Shown one piece after another: positions 5,697-63,636 of a DNA stretch of 64,000 nucleotides (position 1 is the first letter of the stretch; each line of letters starts with the position of its first letter). The DNA lies in the IMG/VR virus record IMGVR_UViG_3300045988_062648, positions 26,514 to 90,513 of that record; one strand, 5' to 3'. This DNA comes from a virus. Both the position numbers and the translations under genes were made by a program. Under the pieces are notes generated by a model, which ran no database searches, was not told where the DNA came from, and was given only the letters and a program-made list of their open reading frames with translations.

Positions 5697-8600
5697 ATGA
5701 GTAATCGTAGAAGTCTTAAATGTGGTGGTAGACAAAAACTTGCTTGTGGTGGTAGACGTAAAGCATCGACTGGACTAGCAATAGGATTGTCAGCTCTTAA
5801 TAGTTTAGGAAGTATGATTGGTGGAATAGTATCTGCTAATGCTCAACGCAAAGCTATACAAGAATATAATGACCAACAAAGAGTAAATAATCAAATAGCA
5901 AGTTCTAATAATTTAGCTGCTTCTGTAAATAGAAATATAGCTAGCAATAGAAATCTAAATAATTTTAATTTAGATGAATATATTGTTTATAAATACGGAG
6001 GCAAAACTCGTCCTAAGTGTAGTTTTGGAACTGTATTCGCTAATATAACTAAAGGTATTAACACATTTGCTCCTTTAGCAACTTCTTTAGCTGCTGCTGG
6101 AAGTACTGCCCCTACAAGTATTGGTACGTCTCTTCAACAAGATCTTATAAATAATGCTACTGATGCTAATATATTACGTCAAGCTGCCACACAAACATTT
6201 AAATGTGGTGGTCGTAAGAAAGCTCGTAGCGGTATAGCTAGAAGACTTGAAAGTCCTTATATTACAGATGGAGGAGTAGCTATTCCTCTTGGCAACGGAT
6301 TATCTCTTCTACGGGGGGCGACACATGAGGACATCAATGAAACAGGTCAGACCGGTATTGGTATTAATACAGGTAAAGGAGAGATAGAAGCTGAAAATGG
6401 AGAAGTAATACAAAATACTGGTAAAGAACTTCGTATTTTTAGTGACCAACCAATATTTAATGGTATTAGCCCTGCTGATGCAGTTCAAGCTGGTTATAAT
6501 CCTAATCGAGTATTTAATGCTCAAGAAAGAGTTAAAAGCAGACTTGGTATTAAAAATCCTAGTAAGAAAGCTCCTTGGGGAGATAATGTAGATATACAAG
6601 AGTCAGATGCTACTAGAACTTATGCTACTCCATTTAATGAACGTGGACGTAGAACTTCTTATGCTGATAGTTATCAAGGATGGTTTGATCCAGTTAGTTA
6701 TCTTACTGGTAGTGCATTTACTATTGCAGATTATTATTCTACTAGACGTAGAGGTGAAACTCCTGAAGAATGGGCTGAGCGTCAAGCAGTAGAAGCACAA
6801 TATCGTTCTACAGGTTATGCACCTAATGTTGGCTTTCGGGGAGGAATGGGTAGAAATGCAGTACAACGTGCAGCTACTACTAGATATGCTAATCAAGTTA
6901 GAGGACAACAAATTAGACAAACAGGTAGATATAATAGAAATCAATTACTTTCTCAACAACTTGGAGAAGCAGCTCAAGCTAGAACTGCACAAGGTGCTAG
7001 ACAAATTTCTAATAAAATACGAGTTAAAAGAGCAGGACAAGAATGGACTAATGCTGCTGAAACTCCTTATGCTCCTTATGCTGGTGCTGCTGAGAGCCGT
7101 GGTGTTGCTTATCCGTATGAGAATGCAGTTGGTACATTAAATCTACCTAATGCTAGAGCTGAACGTATTAGAACTTCTATTAATAGAAGAATACAAAATG
7201 CTAAAAATAGAATAAATCAACGTAGACAAAATAATACAAATAACAATAATACTAATAACACAGAAACTAATAATTCTAATAATCAAAATGAAAGTTGGAT
7301 TAGAAGAACTAGTCGTAAAGCAGCAAATACAGCTAAGACTTATGGTAAATATGGAGCTATGGGAGTTGGAGTAGGTGGACTTATTACAGGTGCTATAGCT
7401 CTTGGAAATAGAGAAAGTATTAATACAGCAGGTACTAATAGAAATTCTAATAATCAACAAGCTGCTAGACGTAATACTTCTTCTCAGCAAAATAATAATC
7501 AACAAGCTGCTAAACCTACTAGAAGTCTTAAAGATATAGCTCGAGAAACAAATGCTGTTGTTAATCAAGACTTTTTATCTCTTAATCAACGTAATTTAAT
7601 ATATGGTGCTATTAATGTAGGAAATAAAAGAAATAATAATTCTAAAAAATCTCGTGGTAATAGAACTACTAGAGCTAACAGAAATACATCTAAACGAAAT
7701 ACAACTTCACGTAGAAGTCTTAAAGATATTGCTCGTTTTACTATTCCTAATTATATTCCTACTCCTACTAGAACTACTATAAGACGTGCTCAATCTGTTT
7801 ATGATTTAGGTTTAACTAATGAACAAATAGATAGACTTAAAGAAGAAATTACTCAAATTCCATCTAGACCTAGAAAACGTTTTAGTGGACGTAGCACTAC
7901 AACCCCCGTAGAAAGGATTGGTAGACCTAGATTTGTTATTGGAGGTTCTAATGCTTATGATTATACTAATCAATTTCTTAATAGTATAGCTCCTGCTAGA
8001 GTAGTGGATAATAGACCTATTTGGCAAAGAAGTAATTTTAGTCTTCCACAAGTAGCTAATCAAATTACAGGACAATCTGCAAACAATACATCAGTAACAT
8101 CTACAAATACAAATACTTCACCTACATTTAATGTTAGAAGTAATAATCTTGGAATGGATATAACTGGTAGAGATTGGATTGGTTTGGGTACTGATATACT
8201 TGGTAGTCTTGGTGTTGGTTTATTTAATGCTAATTCTTTAAAAGGGTTAGATGTTAATTATACTATTCCGCAATATGTAGATGAAACTCCTGTAGCATTT
8301 GATACTACTTGGCATAATGGAGCACAGCGTGCTAATGTAGAACGTAATCGTATTAATGCTCGTAATATAATTGGACGTAATACAGCTTCAGCTAATACAG
8401 CGGTTCAACGTATGCAACAAAGTGATACTGACGCTATGATGCAACAGAATGTTCTTTGGGACGAAAAAGCTAATAAAGAAGCTGAACTTAGAAATACTGC
8501 TGCTGCAAATGAACAACAAGTTCGTGCTAGAAATGCTGCTGCTAGAAATGCTTATTATCAGAATGTTGCACAAATACGAAATGCTGAACAAGATGCTAGA

Positions 8601-8936
8601 AATAATATTAGACTTGCACAAGCTAATGCGATAAGTGGAAGTCTTGCAGGTTTAGGTCAAGCTGCATCTAACTTCTTAACTTCTGCTGGTCAACGTTATG
8701 AAGATAATAATGCTCTTAGAGCTTATATAGCAAGTAGTGATGAAGGAACACTTGGAAGATTACTTTCTGCTGGAGTTCAAATAAATCCTGATATACTTGC
8801 CGGTTTGTATAATTATGAAGTACAAAGACCAAATGCTAATAGTAAAGAAAGCAAAGAACGTCGAAGTATAATGCTGAATAATTTAATTAGAAATAGAGGT
8901 TACAGACGACAAGCTAGAGGATTAGGTTTAATCTAA
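5697..8936 (+). CDS. low-complexity R/N/Q/A/T-rich virion protein (putative internal/ejected cargo protein, 1079 aa)
   Basis: Repeated K-C-G-G-R motifs (LKCGGRQKLACGGRRKA and, later, FKCGGRKKARSG). Duplicated (T/R)RSLKDIAR(E/F) segments. Long N/Q/R/T tracts and a coiled-coil-like C-terminal half. Locally higher GC than its neighbours. Confidence 0.55.
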   Translation: MSNRRSLKCGGRQKLACGGRRKASTGLAIGLSALNSLGSMIGGIVSANAQRKAIQEYNDQQRVNNQIASSNNLAASVNRNIASNRNLNNFNLDEYIVYKYGGKTRPKCSFGTVFANITKGINTFAPLATSLAAAGSTAPTSIGTSLQQDLINNATDANILRQAATQTFKCGGRKKARSGIARRLESPYITDGGVAIPLGNGLSLLRGATHEDINETGQTGIGINTGKGEIEAENGEVIQNTGKELRIFSDQPIFNGISPADAVQAGYNPNRVFNAQERVKSRLGIKNPSKKAPWGDNVDIQESDATRTYATPFNERGRRTSYADSYQGWFDPVSYLTGSAFTIADYYSTRRRGETPEEWAERQAVEAQYRSTGYAPNVGFRGGMGRNAVQRAATTRYANQVRGQQIRQTGRYNRNQLLSQQLGEAAQARTAQGARQISNKIRVKRAGQEWTNAAETPYAPYAGAAESRGVAYPYENAVGTLNLPNARAERIRTSINRRIQNAKNRINQRRQNNTNNNNTNNTETNNSNNQNESWIRRTSRKAANTAKTYGKYGAMGVGVGGLITGAIALGNRESINTAGTNRNSNNQQAARRNTSSQQNNNQQAAKPTRSLKDIARETNAVVNQDFLSLNQRNLIYGAINVGNKRNNNSKKSRGNRTTRANRNTSKRNTTSRRSLKDIARFTIPNYIPTPTRTTIRRAQSVYDLGLTNEQIDRLKEEITQIPSRPRKRFSGRSTTTPVERIGRPRFVIGGSNAYDYTNQFLNSIAPARVVDNRPIWQRSNFSLPQVANQITGQSANNTSVTSTNTNTSPTFNVRSNNLGMDITGRDWIGLGTDILGSLGVGLFNANSLKGLDVNYTIPQYVDETPVAFDTTWHNGAQRANVERNRINARNIIGRNTASANTAVQRMQQSDTDAMMQQNVLWDEKANKEAELRNTAAANEQQVRARNAAARNAYYQNVAQIRNAEQDARNNIRLAQANAISGSLAGLGQAASNFLTSAGQRYEDNNALRAYIASSDEGTLGRLLSAGVQINPDILAGLYNYEVQRPNANSKESKERRSIMLNNLIRNRGYRRQARGLGLI
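6304..6327 (-). repeat. dispersed GC-rich motif, copy 1 (reverse orientation, CTTCTACGGGGGGCGACA; intragenic)
   Basis: ctcttctacggggggcgacacatg; core 6306-6317. Confidence 0.9.
7894..7916 (+). repeat. dispersed motif, copy 2 (forward, gcactacaaCCCCCGTAGAAAG variant; intragenic)
   Basis: Core 7904-7916; encodes TTPVER in frame. Confidence 0.85.
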
Positions 8937-8951
8937 TGTTAGTAAAATAAA

Positions 8952-8987
8952 AATTCCTTTGATAATAACGATGTTATCAAAGGAATT
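8952..8987 (+). terminator. rho-independent terminator candidate after the 1079-aa gene
   Basis: Perfect 13-bp inverted repeat aattcctttgata…tatcaaaggaatt with a 10-nt loop, followed by acttatatttg (T-rich). It lies directly after the TAA at 8934-8936. Confidence 0.5.
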
Positions 8988-10226: not shown

Positions 10227-12164
10227 ATGTTACCATTTAACCAAATAGATAGAAGTAAAATTGAACAATATAGAGATAATTTTGATTATAATGGTCTAGC
10301 AGATTATCTCTCACAATTTTATGTAGAAGATGCACAAAGACAAAAAGAATATTTAGATTATATTCGTCAATATAGAAGTCAAGGTAATAAATTCAAAGGA
10401 ATAATGGATAGAGCTAATGATGACCAAAAGCAAGCTATTCAATTTCAAATGGGTTTACAAAATAATAGACTACCTAAAACTTTTATTAATAGTCTAGGTC
10501 AAGAACAAGAGAATAGATTTACTAAAGATTATGTTAGTAAACTAAATAATATGGGAGGTGAAGATAGTACTACTCTTGAGTTTATGCTTGAGGGTAAGAC
10601 TGTTGAAACTAAAGGTTTATTTGGTATTAATTGGTGGAAAGGTAATGACATTCAATATAAAGATAGTGGATTTGATTTATTTAGTAAAGGTACAGGATAT
10701 ACAGAACAAGACCTTATGAATATGGGAGTACAAGTTACTCACAAAGATGGTCAAACTATTCTTACTGTGGCTAAAGATAATCCTAATATTGCTAATATTT
10801 TTATGGGTATGCAATACGTTAATACTAATAGAAGTACAGACGATATTAGAAATCCTATGGATGCTAATCAAGAAGGAGAAGCTAGATATAAAGTTCGTGG
10901 TCTTGATGCAGATGGTAACCCAGTTCAAGTTGGAGCTTCAATAGATTTTACTCCAGATAATACTATAGCAGCTACAAGAAATTCTGATAGTATTCCAGGT
11001 TTTCTTTATAATACTGTAGTTGGTACAGGTGAAGCAATTGGTAGAACACTACGACAAGTAGCTGGTGGTATTGGAGACATATTTAGTTCTAATCAAAGAG
11101 ATTGGGAAGAAGATCAATTTAATAATCCAAAGAATATTTACACATACGATACTAATACTAATCCATATACTACACTTCGTGAAGCTCAAAGTATTTATAA
11201 TAATTTTATGAATTCTGATGTTGATAATACTCAAGTATCTTATGAAATAACTGGTTTAGCTGTTAATGGAGCTGCTAGAGCACAATTAGAACAACGAAGA
11301 CAAGCTGGTCTTATTAGTAATGAAGATTATCAAAAAGCTCTTAATAACCTTAATGATAGTTATAAATTAGCTCTTAATCAGTCTCTTCATAATTATAGAG
11401 TATGGTCTAATATAGATAATGACGATAGTGATGACCAAGCACTTTATGAACTCAATACAGAACAAAGAGTAGATGCAGCAGAACAATTACATCTTGATAT
11501 TAATCGTGATGATGCTGTATTTATGCACGCAATGATGGGCAATAAAGTAGGTACAATGATTGTTATTCCTGGTCAAAAGAATAAAGATGGAACAGTTAAA
11601 GAAAATACTGAACGTCGTTATTTTATTGAAGACTTTATGAAAGATGAAGCAGAAGCTGCATTTAGACGAGATACTAAAACTCGTGCTCAAATGGAACTTT
11701 CAGATATGCAAACATATAAATACAATTATGATATACCTGAAGTTGGAACTATTAAAAATGTAAATGGAGCTAGTGCAGTTCTTGAACATCAAGATGGAAG
11801 TGAACAACTTATAGATAGACAAACAGCTCTTGATTATCTTAATAGAGCTATGATATATCAAGACGCAATAGACATGGCTAATCAAAACTATTGGTACGAT
11901 AATGGTGTTAGCAGAGATTATACTAATCTTAAAAATGATGTTAATACTTGGTCGCAACTTAGTATGGCTGAAATATATCCTACAGCATGGCAAAGATATA
12001 TAGAAGCATTACAAAGAGCTGGAGTTAGAACACCAAATCTTGATGATAATACTCCACTTGATGAACAAGGAGAAAATGATAGACTTTATCTTAGAACTCT
12101 TAAAAATCAAATGGCAGCTTATATTCTTCGTTCTGTAGGTTATAACTTTAATAATGTTGAATAA
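10227..12164 (+). CDS. hypothetical virion protein (645 aa)
   Basis: Long ORF. Its stop overlaps the start of the next gene (ATAATGA, translational coupling). Confidence 0.55.
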   Translation: MLPFNQIDRSKIEQYRDNFDYNGLADYLSQFYVEDAQRQKEYLDYIRQYRSQGNKFKGIMDRANDDQKQAIQFQMGLQNNRLPKTFINSLGQEQENRFTKDYVSKLNNMGGEDSTTLEFMLEGKTVETKGLFGINWWKGNDIQYKDSGFDLFSKGTGYTEQDLMNMGVQVTHKDGQTILTVAKDNPNIANIFMGMQYVNTNRSTDDIRNPMDANQEGEARYKVRGLDADGNPVQVGASIDFTPDNTIAATRNSDSIPGFLYNTVVGTGEAIGRTLRQVAGGIGDIFSSNQRDWEEDQFNNPKNIYTYDTNTNPYTTLREAQSIYNNFMNSDVDNTQVSYEITGLAVNGAARAQLEQRRQAGLISNEDYQKALNNLNDSYKLALNQSLHNYRVWSNIDNDDSDDQALYELNTEQRVDAAEQLHLDINRDDAVFMHAMMGNKVGTMIVIPGQKNKDGTVKENTERRYFIEDFMKDEAEAAFRRDTKTRAQMELSDMQTYKYNYDIPEVGTIKNVNGASAVLEHQDGSEQLIDRQTALDYLNRAMIYQDAIDMANQNYWYDNGVSRDYTNLKNDVNTWSQLSMAEIYPTAWQRYIEALQRAGVRTPNLDDNTPLDEQGENDRLYLRTLKNQMAAYILRSVGYNFNNVE

Positions 12165-15100
12165 TGAATACTGAACTTATATTTTCACAAGGTGGTGTAG
12201 AAGTTCCTAATCCAGCTTATAATTCTCGTAGTAAAAAACGAGGAGTTTCTCCTACTATAATAGTTCCTGATGCTTCTCAAGCAAGTTCTATGGCAGATAT
12301 TGCTTATAGAACTAATCCTGCTCTTTATGGTCAGTATGATTATGCTGATGTAAAAAAGTATTATGGTGAAGGTTTAATGCCTAATAAAATATCGCCAAAT
12401 CTAGATGTAGAGCTTGCAGAAGCACAAAGTGGTATAAAAAAGTTTGGTAATGCTTTAGCACAAACACTTGTATCAGAAATAGCTTTAGGCACTGTAATAG
12501 GTATAACAGATTTACTTGATGTAGTAGGAAATGCTATAAGTATGAATACTAATAATGATTATCAAAATCCTATTAGTAGAACTCTTACTGAATGGCAAGA
12601 AAAATTTAGAAATGAAGTTGCTCCTATTTATACAGACCCAACTAAAAATATAGCTAACGGTGGTTTACTTGATATGGGTTGGTGGGCTAGTAATATTCCA
12701 AGTATTGCTAGTTCACTTACTTTGCTTATTCCATCAACAGGTGTAACAAAAGGACTTTCAGCACTTTCTAAATCTACTAATATAGGTGCTTATACTAGAA
12801 CTGCCGTTAGAGCTGCAACTAAAAAACTTGGTAATAAAAGTTTATATAGAGCGGCTAATCGTCCATCTACTATTACAGCTTGGAATAGAGGAATAGAATT
12901 AGGTATTAATGCTGGACTTCAACGTACAATGGAAAACTATCAAGAAGCTAGACAAGTTTATAATGATAGTTTAGAAGATAGTATTAATACTCTTCAAAAT
13001 ATGTCTCCCGAAGATTATCAGAATATGCTTCAACGTAATGCTGATATGTTTGAAGGAGTCGATACAAGTAATATACAAGAAGTAGCTAAAGCTATTGCTC
13101 GTAGAGCTTCTGATAGAACATTTGCTATGGACTTTGCTAATATTGGTTTTGACGTTATGCAACTTTATGCTCTTAGAAATGTTTTTGGCAATAACAGATT
13201 AGCTAATGTTGGTAGAGCTTCTGCTCGTAGAGCAAATAGACTTAGTATTAAATATGCAGGTAAAAGTCAAGCTGAAATAGATAAACTTGAAGCAGCAAGA
13301 CCTTGGAGAGAAAGAACTTTAGATAATATAAAAGATTATGCTATAGGTAGCGGTTATGCTATTAAAGCTCAACTTAGTGAAGGTGTTGAAGAAGCTGTTA
13401 ACTATATTGCTCAAGAAGAAGGTATGAGTCTAGGTCGAACTATTCTTGGTAAAGAGAATCCAAGTAGTTTTGATTATAGACTTAAACAATACATGTTTGC
13501 TCCTCAACTTTGGGAAAGTGCATTTTGGGGTACACTTGGTGGAGTAACATTTCAAGCTGCTGGTAGTGGTTTAATGCGAGTAGCAAATACTATTAAAAAA
13601 GGAACAGAGGTTGACCCTATTACAGGAGAACGTAGACAGAATGTTGCTTGGGCTGGTCTTAGTATGCTTCCTGAAGTAGAAAGACGAGTTAAAGATATTG
13701 AATCTCGTAATATTAAAATGGGACAACTTGCAGAACTTATTAAGACTATTGATAAAGACCATAAAAATCCTTTTCAAAGAAATGCTGATGGAAGTTTTGT
13801 TGATATACCTAATAAGATTGATCAAGATGCAGCTAAAGAACTAGCTATTAATGAATTTGTTACTGATATTGCTTTACAAGCTAATAACAATGGTAATTAT
13901 GAAGCTACAAGAGAATATCTTGCTGACGATAACGTTAGACAAGCTATGGTTCAAGCTGGTATAGTAGATGAAGCTAGTTCTAAAGAATGGCAACAAAGTG
14001 TTCTTAGAAAGTATGACCAAGTTAAAGAACAATATGAAAATGAGTTGTTTAAACTAGATGATTTAGCAGCTACTAGTAACGTTAAAGGAAGAGTTCCTAT
14101 TGAATTTCTACAGAATGCTGCAACATTTAATGTTCAAACTAAACTTAATATTGCTAATTTAAGGTCTCAACAAAGTGCTTATACAGAGCAATACAATAAA
14201 GCTAAAGCTGATGCTATAGAAAATGGTAAACTAGATGCTACTTATGATTATGATTCTATTATAAAGCTGTCCACTATTGTTAGTGGACTTAATGCTTTAT
14301 ATCAACAAAGAAAAGAAATACAAGATGATATAAAACAAAATGGTGCTACTGTTGCTAAACAAATAAGTCTTGATGAAATTAATAAACGTATAACTAAACT
14401 TCAAAAAGACTTTTATATAGATAATAGTACTAATCAACTTGTATCTCTTCTTGCTGGTCTTAGTTCTATTTATAATAGTAGAGCTAGAAACGAAGAAATA
14501 GATAAAAATCTAGAAAAAGCTCTTAATGATGCTTTACAAAATAATAAGTTTGGTGGTATAGAAACTTTGCTAGGTCTTGAGCCTGATACTATAACAGTAT
14601 CAGAAGAAGAACATAAAAATATAGTTAATGCTTATAATAAATTTAATAAAGAATTTATTAATAGAACAGAGGGCAAACAAGGTATTAATCAAATTGGTAA
14701 ACAAAATGTAGAAGCACTTTCTAATGCTATTGCTCTTGGTTATACTATAGCTAATCAACAATCTCAAGTTATAGATACTCAATCTGATTTAGATTATTAT
14801 CTTAATATGATGAACAATAGTATGGATGAAGCTAGAAGAAATGCTATTGAAGAATCATATAATACTATAAGAGAACTTAATAAGAAATATGGTCGTAGAA
14901 GTATTGAAGAAGCTCTAGCTCTTGCTTATCAAGGAAAATCTTCTTTAGAAGCTCTTGATGATTATGAAGAAGGAGATAGAAATAATCTTAATAGAGCTAT
15001 TAAAATTCTTAATCTTACTAGTGCGCCTAACCGAATACTTTATGATGATATTCAAGCACTACTTGATATAGAGGATAAACTTAGTGCTGATAGACGTGCT

Positions 15101-18100
15101 AATACAGAAGTATTATCTACCACAAATCAAAATCCCGTACAATCGACTGAAACCTCGCAGACGAACAATCCATCAGCTGTCACGTCCGAAACGCCCACAG
15201 CGCAAGCAAATAGGCAAAACGGCAATGTTCCGCCAACTCAAACACCATCTCAAACGGCTACATCAGAGCCAATAAATGTTCGTGTTGGTACTCGCAGTGG
15301 TAATCCTTTTATTACTGCAATAAGTGATACAGGAGCACAAAATCAAAATGGTACACTTGTTCCTACAACAGTAGCTGGTCGTTATAGACTGCAAACACAA
15401 GAAGAACAAATACTTAATAATGATAATTTCTATGATAAAGAGAATGGTGTTTCTGTTATAGATGGTGATTATAAAATTACTCAAGAACCAATAGTCATAC
15501 TTGATAATGATGGAAAATATGTTATAGAAGAGAAAGGATTATTGAGTAAAGTAAATGACGAGAAGCCCCCCGTAGAAGATAACGGTGGAACTCAACAAGG
15601 TGGAAACTCTTTTCAAGATGCTATTAGAGATAAAGAAACTCAACAAGGTGTAGTACAACAAAGTCAAGACGATGCAACCTCTTCTACGGGGGGCGAGAGT
15701 CAAGTAGATAGTTTTATCCCAGTAGAAGATTTAAGTCAAGCTGTAGCTGCTAGAATGACTGATATCAATGTTCTTGACTCAAATCTTGATTTAGACGCTA
15801 AAGCTCAACAATATAAAGAACAACTTAATCCTGAAGAATTTGGTGTTACAAGAGAAGAACTTGATAGAGTTATAGATGAACGTATAGCTGGTTTTAAACA
15901 ACTTAAAGAACATCTTGCTACACTTCAAAATCCTCAAGCTCAAGCTGCTACTGGAATAGCTTTTGCAGCTAGACTTATGGAACCTACTAGTAATGTATTT
16001 TCATTAATGTTTGCTAGTAGTATGTCTAGTTTTGTTCAAGAATATGCTAAGTCAATGATTATACCAAAGACTACAGATGGTCGTTATGTAATTAATCTTA
16101 GGTCTTTTCTTAGACAGCTTAGAGACGCTCTTGGCTCAAATAATAAAGATGTTATTCTTCCTATATATCGTCAAATTAAAACTTATTTCCTTAGTGCTGA
16201 CGGTAAAGCAAATTATGTACTTGATAATTATGAAACGTTACTTGATGATAGTGTATTAGATAATCTTGATAAGTCTGTAGAACAAATCAGACAAGAACAA
16301 AATAATAATGTAACGACATTAAGAGTAAATATTAATGACTTTATAGAAGCAGCCAATAACGTTTACGATGATGCTAGACGTCAAGAATACTTTAATGTTC
16401 TTGATAATCTTAAAGTTGGAGATAAACTTACTCTTAGAACTCTCGATGGTTACATAGAAGTATCTAAAGGAAATGTAGTAGTAGGTAATATGTCTATTGC
16501 TAAAGTTACTCCTGATGGTAGATATTATGTATATAATGAAGGTTGGAGAGAAGATGTTAATATTGGTTCTAATGGACAAATTATAAGTGATGCTAAACAA
16601 ATAATAGAAGATATATTTACAGGACAGTCTGTAAATCATACTAGTCTTCGTAAAATTATTACTGATGCCATTACTGCTAGAGATATTTCAAAAAATCTAG
16701 TTAATCGTTTTGCAGCTAATCCTATTATAAATGATTTAGCTAATCGTTCTAGAGGAGAACAAGCTGGAGAAAGAATATTCTTTGTAGATGATAAGACAGG
16801 TCTTATTGACTATGATAGAATACTTCGTCATCTTGTAAAACTTTGGAATTATTCTTTTGTTAGTAATAAATCAATAGTAACAAATGATGATATAAAAGCT
16901 AGTCTTAATAATTGGTATGAAAAACTTTATCATACTTATAATAATATTAATTATCTAGCTCAACAACAAGATGTTACTGTTAGTTACATGAATGAAGGAG
17001 CTATTAATAGAAAAGTAGAAAATGATACAGCTAATGCTTATGAACAATTTGAATATGCTTCAAATGGTATTGCTGATTTATCTCAAGCTGCTCTTGGAAT
17101 AACTGCTCCCATAACTAATACAATGGTAATATCAGGACATAATGGAGAATCTTCTACATGGAGTGCTGGTAGTACAGTTGTAGCTATTTATAGTAGAAAT
17201 ACTAAACCTGATTTTGTTAAAGCTTATGGTCTTAGACTTACAACAGATGAAATGAAGCAAAATGCTACATTTAAAGCTATGAATGATGCTATGCAGAATA
17301 GACTTATTTCTATTATAAATAGTTTAATAAGTAATAATTCTGATGAAAACTTTAGTAAACTTGTAGATACTATAACGTCCATTCTAGCTTGTAGAAATTT
17401 TACTGATTACGTAAATCCTAAGACTAAAGTTCCAATATATAGAGCTATGTCTGGAAGATTCCAAATTAGACCTGTTACTTATAGAAATACTCCTAATATT
17501 AAAGGTATTGATATAATATATACAAGTCCTGATGGTCGAATGAGTAACTTCCATATTTATAATCATGGTGCTAATAGACCTCAAATAGGTTATAAACCGG
17601 CTAATACAAACAGATTTGTATTTACTGATACTGATAGTACTATTACTGGTTCTAGGATAGCTACTGATTTTATGAACTTTATAGCTCCTTATGTAAACTT
17701 TAATATAGCTCAGGCTGGTATAGCTCTTGATAATAATCCTAATGCTGATTATGCTGGTTTTATAACTCATAAAAACGGAAAAGTAGTTGTTAATATTCCA
17801 ACAGAAGATAATACAATTGGATTTAATGAAGAATATGATAGTTATAGTCAATTTGTTCTTAGTAATAATCTAGTCAAAGTTAATACTTTTGTTGGTCAAA
17901 ATGGTAAGAACTTTAGTTATCAAAATGGAAATCAACGTGCTAATCAAGTTCTTTATGTAGATAGTGAGTTGGGAACTACAACCCCCGTAGAAGAAACGAG
18001 ATATATTAATTCTAACTCTGATGCAGCTCTTAATCAACAAGTTTATGATATACTTAACTCTAATGAGCCAACTAGTAATACAGGAGAACGTATATTCCAA

Positions 18101-19225: not shown

Positions 19226-19283
19226 AATACGTCCACTTTTAATTTTGAACCGCTTAAAATCGAATTTAAAATATATAATAACT

Positions 19284-22200
19284 ATGAGTGATAAAAGTTG
19301 TATTATAAAGTTTAACGATAGTAGTCTTTCAAAAGAACTTACAAAAAGAACTGGTCATAATAGTATAAAGTTTGCTGCTTATGAAGCCGCAGTAATTGAA
19401 AATGGTCAGTTTAATCAAGCATTTACAGATTGGTATAAAGCTCGTTATAAAAGAACACCAAATCTAGAAGTAAAAGACGCTAAGACTTTAGCTGATAGAG
19501 TAATTGAATATTATAATACTGAAGTGTATACTACAGCTAGAGATATTACAAATCAAAGTGTAGATGCTAAACAAGTACTTGAAAATGGTTATAATAGTTT
19601 TCAAGATAGAGAACTTGGTAAACATTTTGTAGCTGTATCTATACTTAGAACTTATCGCGATGTTCATGACCTTGGCATAAATATTCGTGGTAGTAAACGA
19701 GATTATTATACTAATACTGCTAAAAGAGCATGGAATGATTATATATTTGAATCTATAGTTGCTAGACGCAAGAAAGATATTAATCAAGTTAAAGAAGAAT
19801 ATGATTCTGCTGAAGATAAATATGCTTATATTAATAAAGAACTTGGTAGAAATAAAACTGTAAGCGAAGTTAATCTTATTGCAGTTTGGAATGAGTTAAA
19901 TGGTAGTGCAGATAAAGCTCAAAGGTTTATAGATGAAGTTTTTGCTACTAATGAAATATCTAATATTAGAGCAGAAATAGATGATGTTGAAACAGATAAA
20001 AATATAAATGATGCTTCTGATGCTAATCGAGAAGAAAATGATTTAGATAACGGAGAGGATGTAGCAAAAGAAGAAGATGCAACTGATGATACTATTAGTA
20101 AATTTGATCATTCAGGTGTTTATAGTACTTGGCTTAAACATCTTAATCAAAGACTTGTAGTATATTTCAATACTCTTGAAGTTCTTAATAGTCCTACTCA
20201 AAATGATGGTGCTTGGGATGTAAATAGAAATAATAGTTTTGGTATAGCAAATACTATGGATGCAGCAGCTTGTTCTAAGCTGATATTTGCTAATAATGGT
20301 TTTGCTAATACTGATGAAATGATTTATACTATTAGACGTTTAAGTACTACTATACCTGGCTTTGAGTCTTTTGCTAAATTTGCAGATGACCTTGAACACG
20401 ATGCTGATTTACGTACAGAAGTATTTACTACGTTTAGTAAAGCTGTAGTTCCTAAACTTGAAACTGTAATCGAAAACGAAGAAGTTAATACACGTATTAG
20501 TAATCTACGGGCTAATCCGAGACTTGCCACAATGTTCTTGGCGTATGATGATATGCGAGCTTCTATAGGTATTGATAATACTTTTATGCAAAGTAGAGTT
20601 AATGCTTTTGAAAGAAGTCTTAAAAAGAAGAGTGGTGTAGTAGAAAATGCAAAAGAAAGACTTAATAAAGATATTGACGATATTATTGATATAGTTCGTC
20701 AATATATACCATCTATTCCAGCAAATGCTATAAAAACATTTATACAAAAGAATAATCACGCAGATAATGATATTAATGCTCAATATGATAATCTTAATAT
20801 TATAGTTGGTAATCTTAAAAACATTATTAAGAGTGCATCTGCTACCCAAACTAGATATAATAGTTTTATAACTAGAATAAATGAAGCTGTTGAACATAAT
20901 GACGCAATAAAACATGATGTTAGTGGACAACCACATAGTCATACAGAATATATAAATATAGCCGACTTATATAAAGAAGATTATCTTGATGCTAGTGTTA
21001 ATGGTGCTGTTGCAGCTATAGTTGATAATGTTCTTCAATATATTAATCCTGACGTATCTTTTAATTCTCGTAATCAAGATGGTAATCAAAACTCTGATGT
21101 AATTAATAATAGTTTAGTTACATATATGCGCCGACTTAATAGTCGTTGGTATATGTATAGAGATGAAGCTACAGGTAATGCTACTTGGCAAAATGATGAA
21201 CTTCTTGATTGGGGAAGAGAAAGACTTTTAAGTCAGCAATATACTTATAGTAATATACTTCTTGAACACAGAGATGAAGAAGGTAATATTCTTAATAAAG
21301 GGTTGTTCCGTAAAGGTGATAATGGAGAACTTTCTTTAACAGAATATGCTAAAGATCTTTTTGATATTTATTATTATAATGGAGCATCAGATTTAGATAA
21401 TGGTACTAGTGCAGGTTATTCCAAAATGAATATTGGAGTATATGCACCTACTACTTATATGAATTATTTTAAAGCTAATGTTAATGGTGTTTCAGATAGT
21501 AATTTTGCTAATTATTTCTTACGTATTCCATCAGATGCTCCTAAAACTTTTATACTACGTGCTCCAAGATATAGTACAAAAAATCTTTATAGCGTAGCTA
21601 ATAGAGATGAAATACGTCAAGCTGCAAGTGAAATAGTTGATAATTACGATAGAATTAGCATTAATGATTTTACTAGAGATTATTTTAATGAAGAAACAAT
21701 AAAAGTAAAAGGTAATAATATCAACTCTACAGAAGATATAATTGCTAATTATCTTACCGATAAAGGAGATATGTATGTTCCAACACTTAAAGCTGTTAAA
21801 CAAATTCCTGATAGTGATGAAGTTTATGTAGCTGTTGAAACAGTTGGAACATATAAAAATCCAGATGGAACATATAGTAATCACTTGTATATAATAAAAG
21901 GTACTCTAGTAAAGAGAGGTAAAGCTAATTTCCTTACTAATAGAGAATATATTGCTTCTGTATCTGATACTCATGATATGGATGAGAAGGTTAAAAACAT
22001 TATGAGAAATTACTATGAACGTAGGCTTGAAACTCATGATGTTACAGTTAAAGGAACTACATATAATAAAGCTAGACGAGAAATAAATAGAAATCATACT
22101 ATTGTTAAGATACTTCTTAATAACTTTAAACAAGAACTTCTTGACATGGCTACAACACTTAACCATTACTTTGAATTTAATGCTGATGGTAGTATTAAAT

Positions 22201-42691: not shown

Positions 42692-42694
42692 AAC

Positions 42695-49948: not shown

Positions 49949-51370
49949 TTAATCTACAACTATTACATCATTTATTTTATCATAAGCAGCAATATTTTTA
50001 ATGTTATTAAGTAAAATATGACTTACGGGCAATCTACGTTCCTGCAAATGCCTTTGTTCGAGAGTATTAGATATATATAAGGTAAATAATTTAATTGGAC
50101 TATTAAAATTTACCTTATCCAATCTATAAATATAACTTTCAATATCATTACATAACGGAGAAGTTATAATAACAATATCCACATCAATAGCAAGTTTTTT
50201 ATCTGGAGCATTACCTACACTAAGAACATTAATTCGATTATTATTAAACGAACTCATATTCATAGTACATTGAAGTTGTGCTCCAGCCATTTTAATCATG
50301 CCAGCTTTAGCTCCACTTTTATAAGTTACAAAATTACCATTTATATCTTTAAGTTCGATAGAATCAAGTTTATCATGAAAACACTCACAAACTTGTTTAT
50401 TAAAACTCTTATTAAGATAATCTCTAACTTGTGTAGCAAAATTAGCTTTCTTATTTATAATAAGAATTTTCTTATAGCTATGTTCTTTTACTATTTCATA
50501 TGTTGCTTGAAGTTTATTTTCATTACTAGCTAAAAGCTCTGTTCTAGCACGAATAATATCATAAGTAAGTTTAGCTCTATCTGATAAAGATATAGGATTA
50601 AATAGAAAATCTATTTGCCTATTATATTCTATATTCATATCAAGATTTTCAGACCAACCATTAGATATTGCAACTCTTCTACAAACTTCTTCTGCACTAA
50701 CATTATTATCTTTATCTCCAATTCTTGCTTTATCAAGCATTTTTAAATCACCAAAAATATTAACGCTAGTAGTAATATAATCATTATGTTGTTTAAGAGT
50801 TTTCTCGTCTTTAGAGTTAAGTTGAACGTCAACCAACAACTCTTCTACGGGGGTCGAGAGCCTAATACTTCTTACTTCATCTTCTTTAAATGTTTCTAAT
50901 AGAGGACAAATTTTATAAAGTTTACTTCTATCTTCATCAGCTATAAGTTTATTAACAATAACTAATTTGAACTTTCCTTTATTAAGAGCTTCACATATTA
51001 TATTAGTTATATCTTCAACATGATACAGAATAACAAGTGAAAAGATACCATTAAGAGTAAACAGATTATCTTCTACAAGATTTTTAGAAACTACTTTTAT
51101 AGTTTTTTTACTAATAAGGTCTTTAAACTCTTTATTATTCTCTTCTTCATTTTGATGTGTAAGAAAATCAACAAGTTGACTTCTTTCATTAAAATCAGAA
51201 GTAATAATAAAAGTACGTCCAAAATTTTTATTATTATAAACTCTTTGGAGTATTCCAAGCATTAAAACTTTATCATTTACACCAAAAGGTATAATAGCTG
51301 TTCCAATACCTTTTTTAATTCTCCATTCTTCTATAGCTTTTATAAATAATTCACCAAGTTTTTCATTCAT
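49949..51370 (-). CDS. hypothetical replication-module protein (473 aa)
   Basis: ORF immediately downstream of the DNA polymerase. No clear Walker A. Contains one motif copy. Confidence 0.45.
   Translation of the reverse strand: MNEKLGELFIKAIEEWRIKKGIGTAIIPFGVNDKVLMLGILQRVYNNKNFGRTFIITSDFNERSQLVDFLTHQNEEENNKEFKDLISKKTIKVVSKNLVEDNLFTLNGIFSLVILYHVEDITNIICEALNKGKFKLVIVNKLIADEDRSKLYKICPLLETFKEDEVRSIRLSTPVEELLVDVQLNSKDEKTLKQHNDYITTSVNIFGDLKMLDKARIGDKDNNVSAEEVCRRVAISNGWSENLDMNIEYNRQIDFLFNPISLSDRAKLTYDIIRARTELLASNENKLQATYEIVKEHSYKKILIINKKANFATQVRDYLNKSFNKQVCECFHDKLDSIELKDINGNFVTYKSGAKAGMIKMAGAQLQCTMNMSSFNNNRINVLSVGNAPDKKLAIDVDIVIITSPLCNDIESYIYRLDKVNFNSPIKLFTLYISNTLEQRHLQERRLPVSHILLNNIKNIAAYDKINDVIVVD
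50840..50862 (-). repeat. dispersed motif, copy 14 (reverse CTCTTCTACGGGGGTCGAGAGCC; inside minus-strand gene 49949-51370)
   Basis: Core 50842-50853. The coding strand reads …SIRLSTPVEELL…. Confidence 0.9.
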
Positions 51371-51373
51371 ATA

Positions 51374-53692
51374 TCAATTAAAATCATCATCATTAAAAAG
51401 TGTTTGATATTCATGAGAATATTTCTTTATAACTACTTTTCCGCTTTTAATACCACGATTAGTATCTGCTTTTTGATTAGAAGATATAGAAAGTAATATA
51501 GGATTAAGTATTTTATATGCTTCATCATAATAATATCTATAATCTATATCTCTAAGTTCAATAGGCACATCATCAAGAGAGTTAAGTATCTTAACAGGAA
51601 GACCACTAGCAAGTCTAGAACGTTTATGAGTTACATTATGTTCTTTTTGAAGTACAACTCCTTTAGTAGAAACATAAAATCTAACATGACGTTGACTATA
51701 TATACTAGTAATATTACCGTTAATTACAGCATCATATACTACATCAAATTGTTTTCCTACATTTTGGGTCTTACAAAAATCAAGTATATCTTTATGATTC
51801 TTAAGAGTTTCCATAATAGGAATATTATGAAGAAAATAATTACTAACAGCAATAGCCACAATAGGCATATCGTAACCTTTCTTCAAATCTTTAAGATATT
51901 GTTTAGGGTCAAGAGCACCTTTATATTCTATTTTACCATTAGTTTGTTCATCAAAATAATTATTTATATCTCGACTTACAAGAATATTATATTCTTCACT
52001 ATCTGCACTAAGTTTTGTTTCTTCACACCATTTATTTGTTATTTCTTTAAATTCTTCTCGTTTATCTTTTGGAAGTTTTACAATTATACCATCAGTATTA
52101 GCACTAATAACATGAATACCAGCAAGTTCAAGTCGTTCACATAACATAATAATCATTAATTGACCATTTATAGTAACTTTAAGTTGTGCAAGTCTATCAT
52201 ATAGCCAAAACTTGTCACTACCAAATTTACCATATATAGCATTAATAACAATTTTCAATGCTTCAGCAGCTAGTTTATTATGAACTCCTTTAACTACTTG
52301 TTCATCTTCGTCTTTAGTATGTTTAGCTTTTATACGAGTAGTTCTAAAATAATCTACCATTTGTACAAAAACTTTTTCATTTATATGTTTTGGTGCAATA
52401 TTATATGCAACCATTATACTAGGATAAAATGAACTAATATCATAATGAACATAAGTAAACTTATCATCACTACGATATACACCTGGTATATCTTTACTAT
52501 GAAGTCCACCTGTTGCTATTGTATAAGTAGTACCTTTAAATTTAATTTCTTTACTAAAAGCATCTTTACTTGTACGATATATAGCTACAGTCTTCATTTC
52601 AGCAAGCATATCTTGAAGTTCTTTAGTTTCAAAATGAATATTATCAAAGATAACTTTATTAAAACTTAAACGAGTTCTTTCTGTTCTAAGTTTTTCAAAA
52701 CGTTCTTTTCTAAGTCCACTTCTCTCACTATAAAACTTAACAAGAAGTCTATCTGCAATATTAGCACGAGATGCACAAAGAAGATTAAGTTTAAAAGCTG
52801 CTCCAAGACTATAACGAAGTTTTACTTCATCAGGCTTTTGTCTTACTATTTCACATACAAGAAATACATCATTCTTATTATAATGAAGCATATCTTTTAT
52901 ATATTTTGGTAAAACATATCTATCAAAATCATTTGTAATAAGAGAATTAAGTTCTTTTGTACTCATTCCTCTATAATGATTTTGTTTATGCCAATAAAGT
53001 TCAGCTTCTTCTTCATCTATATCAGGCAGCTTAAAATCAAGAAGTTCATGCCATTTAAGATTAATACTAGTTTGTTTAAGACTTTTACCAAACTTAACTC
53101 GTTCACCAGTATCTTTATCTATATTAACACCAGCTGCATTTAAAGCATAAACTCTTTGAATATCCACAGTAGCATAAGGCAATCTATATTGTCTTAGCAT
53201 TTCTATTTCATTATCCTTATAAAATGCTTCTTTGTCATCTTGAAGTTCAATTATTCGTTTACTAGTTTTATAAAGATATTTAATAAGTTCTTTACTATTG
53301 TCAAATTGATTAAATCGACACATAAAAGCTCTTATCATCATATCATCATAATTACTATTATTATAACCGAATAAATCATATCTTACAGGATATTGTTGAA
53401 TATTTCCATCATCATTAGTATAAGTTTCATAATGAGCAATCATACTATTGATATAACTCACTATTTCAAGCAATTGACTATCATCAGTATCAGATATATA
53501 AAATACATCTGATTTAACTTTATCAAGTCTTTCCTTTATCTCTTTTACACTTAACTTTTCAGTCAACGCTATAGGATTTCCTTTATCATCAATACAATCA
53601 CTAAATGTATTAAGATAATCTTGCATATCAACAAAAGTTATACTAAATAGATTTGGGAATATTTCAACATCAATAGCTTTACTAATAATCAT
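51374..53692 (-). CDS. family B DNA polymerase with 3'-5' exonuclease motifs
   Basis: Exo I DVEIF; Exo II …YNNSNYDDMM… (N-x-x-x-F/YD); Exo III HYNKND. Pol motif A YVHYDISSFYPSIM (DxxSLYPS), motif B KIVINAIYGKFG (KxxxNSxYG), motif C ISANTDGIIV (YxDTDS-like). Confidence 0.85.
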   Translation of the reverse strand: MIISKAIDVEIFPNLFSITFVDMQDYLNTFSDCIDDKGNPIALTEKLSVKEIKERLDKVKSDVFYISDTDDSQLLEIVSYINSMIAHYETYTNDDGNIQQYPVRYDLFGYNNSNYDDMMIRAFMCRFNQFDNSKELIKYLYKTSKRIIELQDDKEAFYKDNEIEMLRQYRLPYATVDIQRVYALNAAGVNIDKDTGERVKFGKSLKQTSINLKWHELLDFKLPDIDEEEAELYWHKQNHYRGMSTKELNSLITNDFDRYVLPKYIKDMLHYNKNDVFLVCEIVRQKPDEVKLRYSLGAAFKLNLLCASRANIADRLLVKFYSERSGLRKERFEKLRTERTRLSFNKVIFDNIHFETKELQDMLAEMKTVAIYRTSKDAFSKEIKFKGTTYTIATGGLHSKDIPGVYRSDDKFTYVHYDISSFYPSIMVAYNIAPKHINEKVFVQMVDYFRTTRIKAKHTKDEDEQVVKGVHNKLAAEALKIVINAIYGKFGSDKFWLYDRLAQLKVTINGQLMIIMLCERLELAGIHVISANTDGIIVKLPKDKREEFKEITNKWCEETKLSADSEEYNILVSRDINNYFDEQTNGKIEYKGALDPKQYLKDLKKGYDMPIVAIAVSNYFLHNIPIMETLKNHKDILDFCKTQNVGKQFDVVYDAVINGNITSIYSQRHVRFYVSTKGVVLQKEHNVTHKRSRLASGLPVKILNSLDDVPIELRDIDYRYYYDEAYKILNPILLSISSNQKADTNRGIKSGKVVIKKYSHEYQTLFNDDDFN

Positions 53693-54237
53693 AATATTTC
53701 ATAAGCACTATAATCATCATTTATTGCAGCATTATACCATTTAATTAGATCATTAGTGAATACTTCACCTTTATTTTCATCTATTAGTTTAACACGAGGA
53801 GAATAAGTAATACTAATTGTTTGTTTAGCATATTTAAATACTTTATCTTTCCATACATTAATATTGGTTACACTAAGTATTATATTGCTTGGTTCTAACC
53901 CACATAAAAGAATATGTTTTTTGGCTAGACTAAATTTACTCATAGTACGCTTTAAACAGTCATAATAATAACTTTGTGCAACTTCATATCCATTAAGACG
54001 AGTAGGACTACATTGAAGCATTGGTGCAATTATATAACTTTGCTCTAGCCCCCCCGTAGAAGAGATGGTTTGCACCACCTCTTTTACTCCTACATCATCT
54101 TCAATATTCTCTGTATCAATATATGGAACAACAATAGCTAAATTACTAAAAGGATTACCGAAAACTTGTGGTTCACGATAACCCTTTAGATTTAGTTTAA
54201 GAGGACAATTATCACAAGTCATCATAAGCATCTTCAT
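53689..54237 (-). CDS. possible uracil-DNA glycosylase-like protein (family 4-like), tentative
   Basis: N-terminal C-D-N-C-P-L followed by …VFGNPFSNLAIVVPYID…, reminiscent of the UDG family 4 CxxCxL…GxxP motif. Adjacent to the polymerase gene. Confidence 0.25.
   Translation of the reverse strand: MKMLMMTCDNCPLKLNLKGYREPQVFGNPFSNLAIVVPYIDTENIEDDVGVKEVVQTISSTGGLEQSYIIAPMLQCSPTRLNGYEVAQSYYYDCLKRTMSKFSLAKKHILLCGLEPSNIILSVTNINVWKDKVFKYAKQTISITYSPRVKLIDENKGEVFTNDLIKWYNAAINDDYSAYEIL
54046..54066 (+). repeat. dispersed motif, copy 15 (forward CTAGCCCCCCCGTAGAAGAGATGG; inside minus-strand gene 53689-54237)
   Basis: Core 54049-54062. Confidence 0.85.
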
Positions 54238-57366: not shown

Positions 57367-58221
57367 TTAATCTTTTAATTCATCTTCTGTAAATGCACTA
57401 AGAACGAAATTTCTAACAGCTTTTTCGGCATTACGATATAATCGTTTAGCTGTTTTAATATCTATATTCATAGTACATTTTCTTACGTCTTCAAGTTCAG
57501 CAGGAGTAAATGCTCTAACTGCTAAATCTTTAAGAATAGGATTCATACTATAATACCAACTACGAGCTTCATCAAGAGTTAATATAACATCTATATGACG
57601 CTTTATATTAGTATTTGGCTCTTTTGGTGCATTATCTGTATTGGGATTTACAACCCCCGTAGAAGAATGTGCATCAAGCTCATTTGCTTTTATAAGCTTA
57701 TATACAGCTGTACTTTCTCTTTCACAATTAACAATCAATTCATTTGCTTTATATTTAAGAATATTATCTTCATCTTTAAGACAACAATGACCCTCAAGTG
57801 CTCCAAATATACATTGATTACATTTAGTTTCATTATCTGGATGCGGAATACACTCTTCAAGTTTATATTTACAACCATTAAGGTTAATAGTATCACCAAT
57901 ATTCATTACAGGAATAGAACCAACACTTAAATCATGAATTTCAGTTTCTTCTTCAACTTTTTCCCAGTGCATTCGTTTATTAGCGTTGCATATCTTAAAC
58001 ATTTCGTCTTCATCATTAGCAGATAAAGTTGTAGCATGAGTTGCAAGTAAACACTCTCCTTTATTACCAAATATACATGAGCGGCAATCTGTTTTACCAT
58101 GTTCAGTATTTACAAGACTATAATTATCTCTATTTTGTTTTCTTTTTATTTCCTTTTTCATATTATTTCCTCCAATACTATCTGTTTTTGTATATTTTAA
58201 ATTCGCATATAAAAGGCTCAA
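57367..58221 (-). CDS. Cys-rich hypothetical protein (284 aa) with a duplicated C-terminal motif
   Basis: Several CxxC-like pairs. Repeated …LAVRAFTPAELEDVRK… / …FVLSAFTEDELKD…. Contains one extended motif copy. Confidence 0.45.
   Translation of the reverse strand: MSLLYANLKYTKTDSIGGNNMKKEIKRKQNRDNYSLVNTEHGKTDCRSCIFGNKGECLLATHATTLSANDEDEMFKICNANKRMHWEKVEEETEIHDLSVGSIPVMNIGDTINLNGCKYKLEECIPHPDNETKCNQCIFGALEGHCCLKDEDNILKYKANELIVNCERESTAVYKLIKANELDAHSSTGVVNPNTDNAPKEPNTNIKRHIDVILTLDEARSWYYSMNPILKDLAVRAFTPAELEDVRKCTMNIDIKTAKRLYRNAEKAVRNFVLSAFTEDELKD
57640..57671 (+). repeat. dispersed motif, copy 16 (forward extended ATTGGGATTTACAACCCCCGTAGAAGAATGTG; inside minus-strand gene 57367-58221)
   Basis: Core 57654-57665. 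The full intergenic-type extended form sits inside a coding region. Confidence 0.9.
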
Positions 58222-59444: not shown

Positions 59445-59475
59445 CATTTCTTCTACGGGGGTTGTATATCCCAAC
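59445..59475 (-). repeat. dispersed motif, copy 17 (reverse; revcomp GTTGGGATATACAACCCCCGTAGAAGAAATG; intergenic)
   Basis: Core 59450-59461. Confidence 0.9.
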
Positions 59476-62825: not shown

Positions 62826-63231
62826 AAAGACTTAAATAATTAATTATACTACCTTTAAAAATATATTTTATATTAATAATATATTTATTTTTAACTCCAC
62901 TTTCATATATAATGTTGTTACTAATAAGTTCTTTAACTGCATTATAATATGTAGATTTCTTTAATTTACTATATTTAGTAAAATCATCGCTTTTAATATA
63001 AACAGTATTAGTATCAGATATTAGAATTAGTTTTATATATTCTATAAGAAGTAATGCTGGTCGAGTTAGTTTTGGAGCTATCATTGCAAGACTAATATCT
63101 TGCATTATAAAGTTTCTATCTTTAATATAAGGAGTTCTTATTATAATACCTTTATTAGTTCTTTCTTCTTTATAATCTAGAATAATATTTTGATTATAAG
63201 GAACTTTACTTATATAATCTCTTTTATCCAT
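62806..63231 (-). CDS. putative DNA-binding (winged-helix-like) protein (141 aa)
   Basis: …KSTYYNAVKELISNNIIYESG… HTH-like segment. Similar in style to the 36469-37089 protein. Confidence 0.35.
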   Translation of the reverse strand: MDKRDYISKVPYNQNIILDYKEERTNKGIIIRTPYIKDRNFIMQDISLAMIAPKLTRPALLLIEYIKLILISDTNTVYIKSDDFTKYSKLKKSTYYNAVKELISNNIIYESGVKNKYIINIKYIFKGSIINYLSLYETKFL

Positions 63232-63381
63232 TCGTTTACTATTAAAATCTTCTACAAATATACCACTAAAATTCCAAAATAATGGAATAATTACGTTAAA
63301 TTAACTTAAAAACTCCAATATAGTGGAAATTTTAGACTTGTAACTTATTGATTATCAGGCAGTTACAATGAGCAGTAATAT

Positions 63382-63636
63382 CTATATAGATATAATATAA
63401 TAGTCTTTATTATTACTATTATTAGTATTAGCATTAACTTGGGCACTACAACCCCCGTAGAAGAAATGAGAACTACATTCTCTTATTTTATTATTTTGTT
63501 CTTTATTATCTGTACTACCATAAACAAAAATAGCCCTACTACTTTCACAAGCAATAGGACTATCCCTTTCATTAACATCATTTATATGCAGTTTTAGCTC
63601 GACATCAAAGATAGTGAATTTATGATAATGAACCAA
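63382..63636 (-). CDS. doubtful ORF (84 aa) overlapping a motif copy
   Basis: Contains FFYGGCSAQ, encoded by the antisense of the dispersed motif. The same peptide appears in clearly spurious antisense ORFs at 7812-8075 and 17870-18139. Confidence 0.2.
   Translation of the reverse strand: MVHYHKFTIFDVELKLHINDVNERDSPIACESSRAIFVYGSTDNKEQNNKIRECSSHFFYGGCSAQVNANTNNSNNKDYYIISI
63438..63470 (+). repeat. dispersed motif, copy 18 (forward CTTGGGCACTACAACCCCCGTAGAAGAAATGAG)
   Basis: Core 63452-63463. Shares the trailing GTAGAAGAAATGAG with copy 10. Confidence 0.9.

Follow-up and report, generated by a model that had tools for sequence, protein, structure and literature searches.

An asymmetric motif forms a separate, evenly spaced series on each DNA strand of crAss-like phages

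The DNA examined here, called the window throughout, is a 64,000-nucleotide stretch of a viral genome (IMG/VR record IMGVR_UViG_3300045988_062648, positions 26,514 to 90,513) that belongs to a crAss-like phage. It contains 18 copies of an asymmetric motif, TC-TTCTACGGGGG, and each DNA strand bears its own evenly spaced series of these sites, about one per 5-9 kb. We tentatively propose, at less than an even chance, that the two interleaved, lineage-specific series, one per strand, are a 'strand punctuation' of Crassvirales that sets the starts of synthesis or breaks and is read by a co-evolving phage factor. As to mechanism, the reading we favour, with a probability of roughly 0.3, is that the motif is a strand-specific cis site at which a phage DnaG/TOPRIM-type primase preferentially starts on single-stranded template.

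The core TTCTACGGGGG was present in 17 exact copies and one copy with a single mismatch (at 22473), compared with 0.09 matches expected from dinucleotide shuffles, and none of 100 shuffles reached 18. Conservation extends over about 22-25 bp, reading catcTC-TTCTACGGGGG and then TTGTAnnnCCCAA or GCGAGAG, and 13 bases inside this span are invariant. No degenerate copies were found in the long gaps. The four extra hits with two or three mismatches in the window compare with 3.2 expected by chance; because relaxing the search to three mismatches adds chance-level hits only, the copies are all-or-none. The G strand, and that strand alone, has a weak hairpin potential, folding merely 1.5-3.5 kcal/mol better than shuffles. 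A hairpin reading of the flanks was rejected after inspection by eye, since the bases upstream and downstream do not covary consistently, and by-eye tallies of motif sub-variant against strand or sense disagreed between the window and the related genome cr8_1.

A first-pass annotation, made by a model from the letters alone, had drawn attention to these copies. All 18 cores were recovered where it had placed them, its list of gaps was correct, and no copy lies in positions 1-6304, in line with its remark that the first 6.3 kb are empty. The window has about 30% G+C; its genes lie on the plus strand to about 34 kb, a block that includes open reading frames (ORFs) of 2353 and 4780 aa, and on the minus strand beyond. 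The copies, 7 on the plus and 11 on the minus strand, are as follows.

6305-6317, plus strand: motif TCTTCTACGGGGG, sense in the 1079-aa ORF 5697-8936, encoding SLLRG; 3' flank GCGACAC
7903-7915, minus strand: motif cTTTCTACGGGGG, antisense in the same 1079-aa ORF, TPVER; 3' flank TTGTAGTGC
15567-15579, minus strand: left member of a close inverted pair, antisense in the 2353-aa ORF 12164-19225, PPVED
15680-15692, plus strand: right member of that pair, 114 bp from its partner, sense in ORF 12164-19225, SSTGG
17982-17994, minus strand: antisense in ORF 12164-19225, TPVEE
22471-22483, plus strand: motif ttCTCTACGGGGG, the sole variant core, sense in the 4780-aa ORF 19191-33533, LLYGG
26140-26152, minus strand: antisense in the 4780-aa ORF, TPVEE
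33548-33560, minus strand: begins 15 nt past the stop codon of the 4780-aa ORF
37247-37259, minus strand: intergenic, downstream of the DUF932 gene 37435-38505; left copy of an inverted pair
37392-37404, plus strand: intergenic, right copy of the same pair, 146 bp from the left copy
41451-41463, minus strand: occupies most of the 51-bp spacer between ORFs 41474-41869 and 41018-41422
42634-42646, plus strand: intergenic, adjoining a terminator-like hairpin on the gene strand
46060-46072, minus strand: sense in the TOPRIM/primase-like gene 45714-46904, LFYGG
50841-50853, plus strand: antisense in the SNF2-like helicase gene, TPVEE
54051-54063, minus strand: sense in ORF 53689-54237, SSTGG
57654-57666, minus strand: sense in ORF 57367-58161, SSTGV
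59449-59461, plus strand: intergenic, upstream of a host-type TATATTTG box on the gene strand
63452-63464, minus strand: intergenic

The coefficient of variation (CV) of the gaps between all 18 copies was 0.63, compared with 0.95 for uniformly placed sites (P = 0.026). Merging the two close pairs lowered it to 0.49 (P about 0.002), and the same trimming of the null gave P = 0.014, so that uniform random placement is disfavoured either way. A Rayleigh scan of the window copies over 1.5-8 kb found no periodicity (P = 0.64). Placement in the window is more even than random, yet not periodic, and the regular spacing claimed in the first-pass annotation stands only in the former sense. Its 3.2-4.8 kb range was a bin picked after the data had been seen, and the mode at 3.5-4 kb with gaps of double that size is a product of two interleaved series with 5-9 kb spacing.

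The regularity became clear when the strands were separated. Same-strand gap CVs in the window were 0.37 on the plus and 0.38 on the minus strand (null about 0.9), and permuting the strand labels on fixed positions gave P = 0.0004. An ENA contig, ERZ1690078 NODE_87 (90,513 bp), is 100% identical to the window across a 22 kb overlap and is predicted, from a 55-nt coordinate offset, to be circular at about 90,458 bp. We analysed 83.2 kb of this contig, all but about 7.3 kb, with 24 motif copies. Adding this sequence weakened the pooled evenness (CV 0.71, P = 0.048) but preserved that of each strand (plus CV 0.45, P = 0.007; minus CV 0.38, P = 0.0008), and strand-label permutation at fixed positions gave P = 0.0007. 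The smallest same-strand gaps in the extension were 3350 and 2415 bp (P about 0.003 each), and four opposite-strand pairs were 114-149 bp apart. Since evenness belongs to same-strand copies, setting aside the two inverted pairs, as the earlier annotation had done, was the right instinct. A further pair lies just before the window in the source contig (window coordinates -854/-727), so the copy-free first 6.3 kb is an ordinary same-strand gap of 7-9 kb.

This strand dependence bears directly on the idea that the motif binds an architectural or condensation protein, for example a phage IHF/HU-like protein, and arranges the DNA in loops to be packaged or ejected. Such a role would agree with the dispersal and conservation of the motif and with its independence of genes, and relatives annotate IHF-like genes. 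A double-stranded role, however, predicts evenness regardless of orientation and avoidance of near-adjacent sites; here the pooled evenness is weak (the P of 0.048 in the 83.2-kb extension), orientation bears most of the signal, and pairs occur within 114-149 bp. We therefore regard an architectural role as improbable. Among the roles offered in the first-pass annotation, loop anchors and organisation of DNA in the capsid are orientation-blind and fared badly, and periodic nick or priming sites fit best because regularity is a per-strand property.

To place the motif among crAss-like phages, the window was compared with five complete genomes from three Intestiviridae subfamilies (cr271_1, ctcc615, cr8_1, p-crAssphage and crAss002). 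The closest deposited-phage nucleotide match of the window was cr271_1, at about 77% over only 2 kb, and the helicase of the window is 45% identical to Obtuvirinae helicases. Related contigs of about 90 kb gave many matches to the motif in a scan of viral contigs, and each of the five fetched genomes has its own variant of a YYYY-A-Y-GGGG core, as listed below.

cr271_1: 17 copies, cacatYTC-TTCTACGGGGG-AGCT
ctcc615: 19-21 copies, aaCCT-TTCTACGGGGG-AGGTC or AGCTA
cr8_1: 28 copies, CATACC-TTTTACGGGG(C/G)GGCT
p-crAssphage (prototype): 31 copies, TCCATC-CTC(T/C)ACGGGG(A/G)GT
crAss002 (cultured): 30 copies, CTCCTTTA(C/T)GGGGGAA, also written CTCCTTTAYGGGGGAA

Both strands carry copies in all six genomes (the window and these five), and the comparison of spacing among relatives bore out the per-strand regularity. 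Pooled gap CVs were 0.57-0.72 (Fisher-combined P 2e-6). Same-strand spacing gave combined P values of 7e-13 (plus) and 2e-9 (minus), with CVs of 0.32-0.47 in four of the six genomes (window, cr8_1, p-crAssphage and crAss002) against a null of about 0.94; strand-label permutation gave a combined P of 2e-11, and alternation of orientation was significant at 2e-7. In p-crAssphage and crAss002, tandem GC-rich pentamers of the GCGAA/GCGGA type (GCG[ATG]AGC) stand on the same strand 13-26 nt from some copies; 9 of 10 such sequences in p-crAssphage (e.g. 28055-28200, 44930-44945, 95889) and 6 of 10 in crAss002 (e.g. 4225, 47861, 86188-86198) are near the motif, and the window's clade has no such pentamers.

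In crAss001, a member of the Steigviridae (MH675552), the ACGGGG-type motif was not found. This genome has CTTCTGGAG in 27 copies on both strands, without sense bias, in alternating orientation (P = 0.005) and even on the minus strand (CV 0.48); CTTCTGGA, with 38 occurrences, is its second most frequent 8-mer. crAss001 differs from the six motif-bearing genomes in replication module and motif, yet its two-strand layout is similar, and CTTCTGGAG may be the counterpart of the motif in another Crassvirales family.

The relation of the motif to genes was counted for 144 copies in the six genomes. Intergenic sequence, about 9% of the total, holds 47 of them (33%, a 3-4 fold enrichment, P = 2e-15). 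The other 97 (67%) are genic, 57 in sense and 40 in antisense orientation (P = 0.10, not significant), and those in the window use several reading frames. The intergenic enrichment favours a transcription signal (promoter, pause or terminator) read on both strands by the virion polymerase or a modified host polymerase, as does the location of some copies shortly before genes or host-type TAnnTTTG boxes, and the crAss virion polymerase transcribes single-stranded DNA in vitro. Yet two-thirds of the copies are genic and about 40% of these antisense, sense copies sit in the middle of the 2353-aa and 4780-aa genes, and the TAnnTTTG/TATATTTG boxes are separate from the motif. In phage phi14:2, early transcripts share no common motif and the middle and late promoters are sigma-70-like, so its promoters differ from the motif too. 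A transcription signal is accordingly given a small chance only, and the earlier view that the copies are ill suited to be gene promoters agrees with these counts. Promoters of T7-type RNA polymerases were rejected because the copies lack a consistent sense placement upstream of genes, and host sigma promoters because the TAnnTTTG boxes near some copies are distinct from them. One TATATTTG box lies in window 37100-37200 on the minus strand, with a hairpin and T-run (37105-37140) within about 40-80 nt, before the next ORF; box and hairpin could belong to an attenuator or specify a short transcript. Downstream of ORF 42695-43045 there is another clean hairpin with a T-run (window 42650-42690, minus strand).

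Several copies occupy orthologous positions between genera, at the end of the giant gene and in the primase-like, helicase and glycosylase-like genes. The copy at 33548-33560 keeps its place and orientation in cr271_1 (66209, minus). The site within the primase-like gene (46060-46072) is used in cr271_1 (78005, minus) and ctcc615 (25799, minus), and the Y-G residues it encodes are invariant in 24 homologues. The copy at 54051-54063, in an ORF homologous to genes annotated as uracil-DNA glycosylase in relatives, recurs at the same place in cr271_1 (86389, minus) and ctcc615 (33880, minus). All five antisense genic copies in the window encode (T/P)PVE(E/D/R). In the helicase gene, a copy stands at the same aligned codons in six genera, with the proteins merely about 30% identical, and the residues there track the local DNA variant (TPVE, RPVK, LPVE or SPIK; TTTTAC gives K and TAT gives I). 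Because these residues follow the DNA variant of each genus, selection acts on the DNA: sites are kept by DNA-level selection even at the cost of fixed amino acids in conserved proteins. All copies of a lineage change together, which argues for a trans-acting reader with drifting specificity, and selection probably works through such a co-evolving factor. The stable positions across genera also agree with the earlier opinion that these are not homing sites.

These fixed positions likewise weigh on the possibility that a small selfish mobile element left the copies behind, either as remnants or as its terminal inverted repeats. The close inverted pairs, whose arms measure 25 nt, do look like a miniature element (e.g. 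37234-37417), and compared with IMGVR_UViG_3300045988_073497, a contig of about 80% identity that also has the inverted pair at 15567-15692, the window shows a rearranged gene cassette between motif copies. However, copies lie in frame in essential genes at positions conserved across six genera, most are solitary, and the points at which homology between close relatives breaks off are generally not at the motif, which makes a mobile element highly improbable. Two comparisons with the same contig are recorded here as observations: nucleotide homology ends exactly at a motif end, 63464, and two small gene segments of window 41018-42700 are swapped in order, in a stretch bounded by motif copies. 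Both suggested mosaic or recombination boundaries, a reading that was rejected because breaks in closer relatives are not at the motif.

The distribution also resembles that of USS and DUS, the DNA uptake sequences of Pasteurellaceae and Neisseriaceae, which occur in both orientations, are spaced more evenly than random, are tolerated in genes and enriched between them, form inverted pairs and have dialects (PMC2817400, PMC1939737). The motif might accordingly be a packaging or uptake tag for the terminase, like uptake sequences or multiple pac sites, and headful packaging from a pac site is predicted for crAss002. The likeness extends to the lack of a palindrome, to genic copies that shape peptides and to lineage dialects (PMC2817400, PMC1939737). 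But USS act regardless of orientation, so their regularity should not depend on strand as that of the motif does. Furthermore, USS have many one-mismatch copies, whereas the motif has no decayed copies, its positions are fixed over long evolutionary distances, and it occurs in a virulent phage rather than a competent bacterium. A tag of this kind is quite improbable.

Per-strand evenness in both orientations is what would be selected if the motif were a direction-dependent 'self' signal for a translocating enzyme, either a Chi-like signal that gives protection from a helicase-nuclease or modulates it, or a polar signal for another motor. Whichever way it moved, an enzyme would then come upon a site in the right orientation within a few kb, which matches the density of about one site per 3-5 kb, and the phages have a recombination module with RecT, a Gam-like protein and an SF1 helicase. 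Chi itself is a host-specific sequence of 5-8 nt. Unlike Chi, the motif has at least 13 fixed bases and variants that follow phage lineage; crAss001 and crAss002 both infect Bacteroides, and their motifs differ; and the phages already encode a Gam-like nuclease inhibitor. We consider a self signal unlikely.

The main rival to priming, though a doubtful one, is that a phage nickase cuts one strand at each motif, for instance between the pyrimidine tract and the A, leaving 3'-OH ends that could start strand-displacement synthesis or recombination. The asymmetry, strict conservation, kept positions and lineage-specific variants of the motif recall phage tf and the LUZ24 group, which have similar conserved asymmetric sites and for which co-evolution of nickase and site was proposed (PMC3517423). 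Its all-or-none character and strand-specific behaviour fit as well, the phages have a DNA ligase gene as well as a TOPRIM protein that might in principle act as a nuclease, and the commoner (-,+) close pairs would yield diverging 3' ends. The dispersed nick sites of T5, phiKMV-like phages and tf have an asymmetric consensus of 9-19 nt, conserved positions and lineage variants, in about 4-14 copies per genome (PMC3517423). All known systems, however, nick one strand only (PMC3517423), and the motif alternates between both strands in near-equal numbers and is known here from sequence. Nicks are not known to have a function that would demand even same-strand spacing, and opposite-strand sites 28-150 bp apart would make fragile points. 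A NUMOD4 and HNH_3 endonuclease gene adjoins the DNA ligase gene in the window (43055-43651, minus strand), and over about 150 nt it shares 77% nucleotide identity with HNH genes of Staphylococcus phages. Its homologues are found in cr271_1, cr8_1, crAss002 and crAss001, the last of which has no such motif, and not in p-crAssphage or ctcc615, which have it. An HNH nickase beside the ligase was therefore rejected as the reader of the motif, its presence not tracking the motif, and this too speaks against nick sites.

We return to priming as the favoured reading. A per-strand, gene-independent and even series fits a process that acts on one strand at a time, and spacing organised by strand irrespective of gene direction, which priming sites require, is what was found. 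The G-rich strand would serve as template, with synthesis beginning opposite the T of a junction trinucleotide and the A or G after this T remaining an uncopied 'cryptic' base. The 5' pyrimidine tract of about 10 nt would be copied into a purine-rich primer of normal DnaG length, and the G-run with the genus-specific 3' flank would act as a docking element. About 10 nt, as in the conserved 5' tract, is a primer length. The junction trinucleotide is CTA in the window, cr271_1 and ctcc615, TTA in cr8_1 and crAss002, CTG in crAss001, and CTA or CCA in p-crAssphage, where every second copy has CCA. The trinucleotides d(CTA), d(TTA) and d(CTG) are those at which bacterial DnaG primases begin, with the middle base copied first and the 3' base left uncopied (PMC2978363), and in T7 a 3' flank of about 10 nt picks 14-26 strong priming sites 1-6 kb apart (PMC12839067). 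The motif would share with these sites the reading on one strand, the trinucleotide with a copied middle base and the flank of about 10 nt; it is longer and stricter, with 13 invariant bases, more widely spaced, at 5-9 kb per strand, and arranged as a series on both strands (PMC2978363, PMC12839067).

Two interleaved series, one per strand, would bound a single-stranded gap whichever way a fork or displacement front moves, and close opposite-strand pairs would be tolerated or serve as two-way start points. Such a layout would suit a circularly permuted genome with RecT and without a recognisable DnaB-type helicase. No DnaB-type helicase was recognised in the window, in which an SF1 helicase (Pfam) and a helicase annotated as SNF2-like in relatives were identified, and dedicated start sites could therefore be useful. 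The RecT assignment in the window comes from the annotation of relatives, and a PolB signal was sub-threshold. A TOPRIM/DnaG-like protein is common to all six motif-bearing genomes, with gp57 as the crAss002 homologue, and in the window it is the candidate trans-acting factor.

45714-46904, minus strand: putative trans-acting factor, a 396-aa TOPRIM/DnaG-like protein, whose relatives are annotated as DnaG-family primase

The structure model of this protein is of low confidence (pLDDT 59), because the homologues listed are all at least 73% identical. By eye, its residues at about 49-92 resemble the DnaG zinc-binding motif (…F-R-x-D…S-M-G-I…R-D-F-G-G-F-G…D-V-Y…), without the Cys/His ligands.

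Several points weigh against priming. Known primases recognise 3-5 nt with loose flanks, not 13 strict bases in about 22-25 bp, and one site per 5-9 kb per strand would mean unusually long Okazaki fragments if these were the sole start sites. The trinucleotide match is weak because the register was chosen by us, and such triplets are likely wherever A or G follows a pyrimidine tract. The assignment as a primase combines the low-confidence model with the annotations of others, and TOPRIM domains also occur in nucleases. If the G strand is the template, the commoner (-,+) close pairs would give convergent, not divergent, synthesis. A study of phi14:2 showed no sign of such sites, though this phage is distant.

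Long specific primase sites on single-stranded DNA do exist in ssiA and ssiB of RSF1010, a pair on opposite strands, and in the complementary-strand origin of phage G4. Unlike those, which depend on hairpins and number one or two per origin, the motif has 17-31 copies genome-wide and weak hairpin potential. The stoperators of cluster A mycobacteriophages such as L5 are asymmetric sites of 13-14 bp, with 20-35 per genome, bound by a phage protein; they are almost entirely intergenic and oriented with transcription, unlike the motif with its predominantly genic copies and lack of significant orientation bias. These virulent phages are not known to have a repressor. The finding belongs with dispersed strand-specific cis-sites, and could represent a new kind of genome architecture.

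The motif strings were not found in the open-access literature searched, and neither the crAss002 paper nor a 2023 review of Crassvirales mentions such a repeat; the review describes the replication mode of crAss-like phages as unknown. crAss-like phages are the most abundant human gut viruses, and a motif with 17-31 copies per genome offers a concrete handle on their replication. Strand punctuation, if true, would be an architecture of replication or genome maintenance without a described phage counterpart. Protein sequences are constrained by the motif, whose copies change together from genus to genus; it predicts the places to look for primer starts or nicks, and covariation could reveal the co-evolving factor to which it points. 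Because cultured phages have it, crAss002 directly and crAss001 in a different form, experiments are possible now. Its genus-specific variants could aid the classification of crAss-like contigs, and the sites must be kept when crAss-like phages are engineered or recoded.

Annotation of the conserved unknown proteins 48095-48910 and 47036-47980 and of the DUF932 protein returned nothing informative. The first ORFs of the window (1-1738, plus strand) and the preceding gene match the Pfam families CrAss_Ring_2 and, weakly, CrAss_Ring_1, so the window begins in the tail/ring module. A known RNA family or tRNA as the identity of the motif was rejected, the sole match in the window being a tRNA-Gln at 33779. 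This gene (anticodon TTG; 33779-33850, plus strand) stands at the junction of the oppositely transcribed gene blocks, and cr271_1 and cr8_1 have a tRNA-Gln at the equivalent place.

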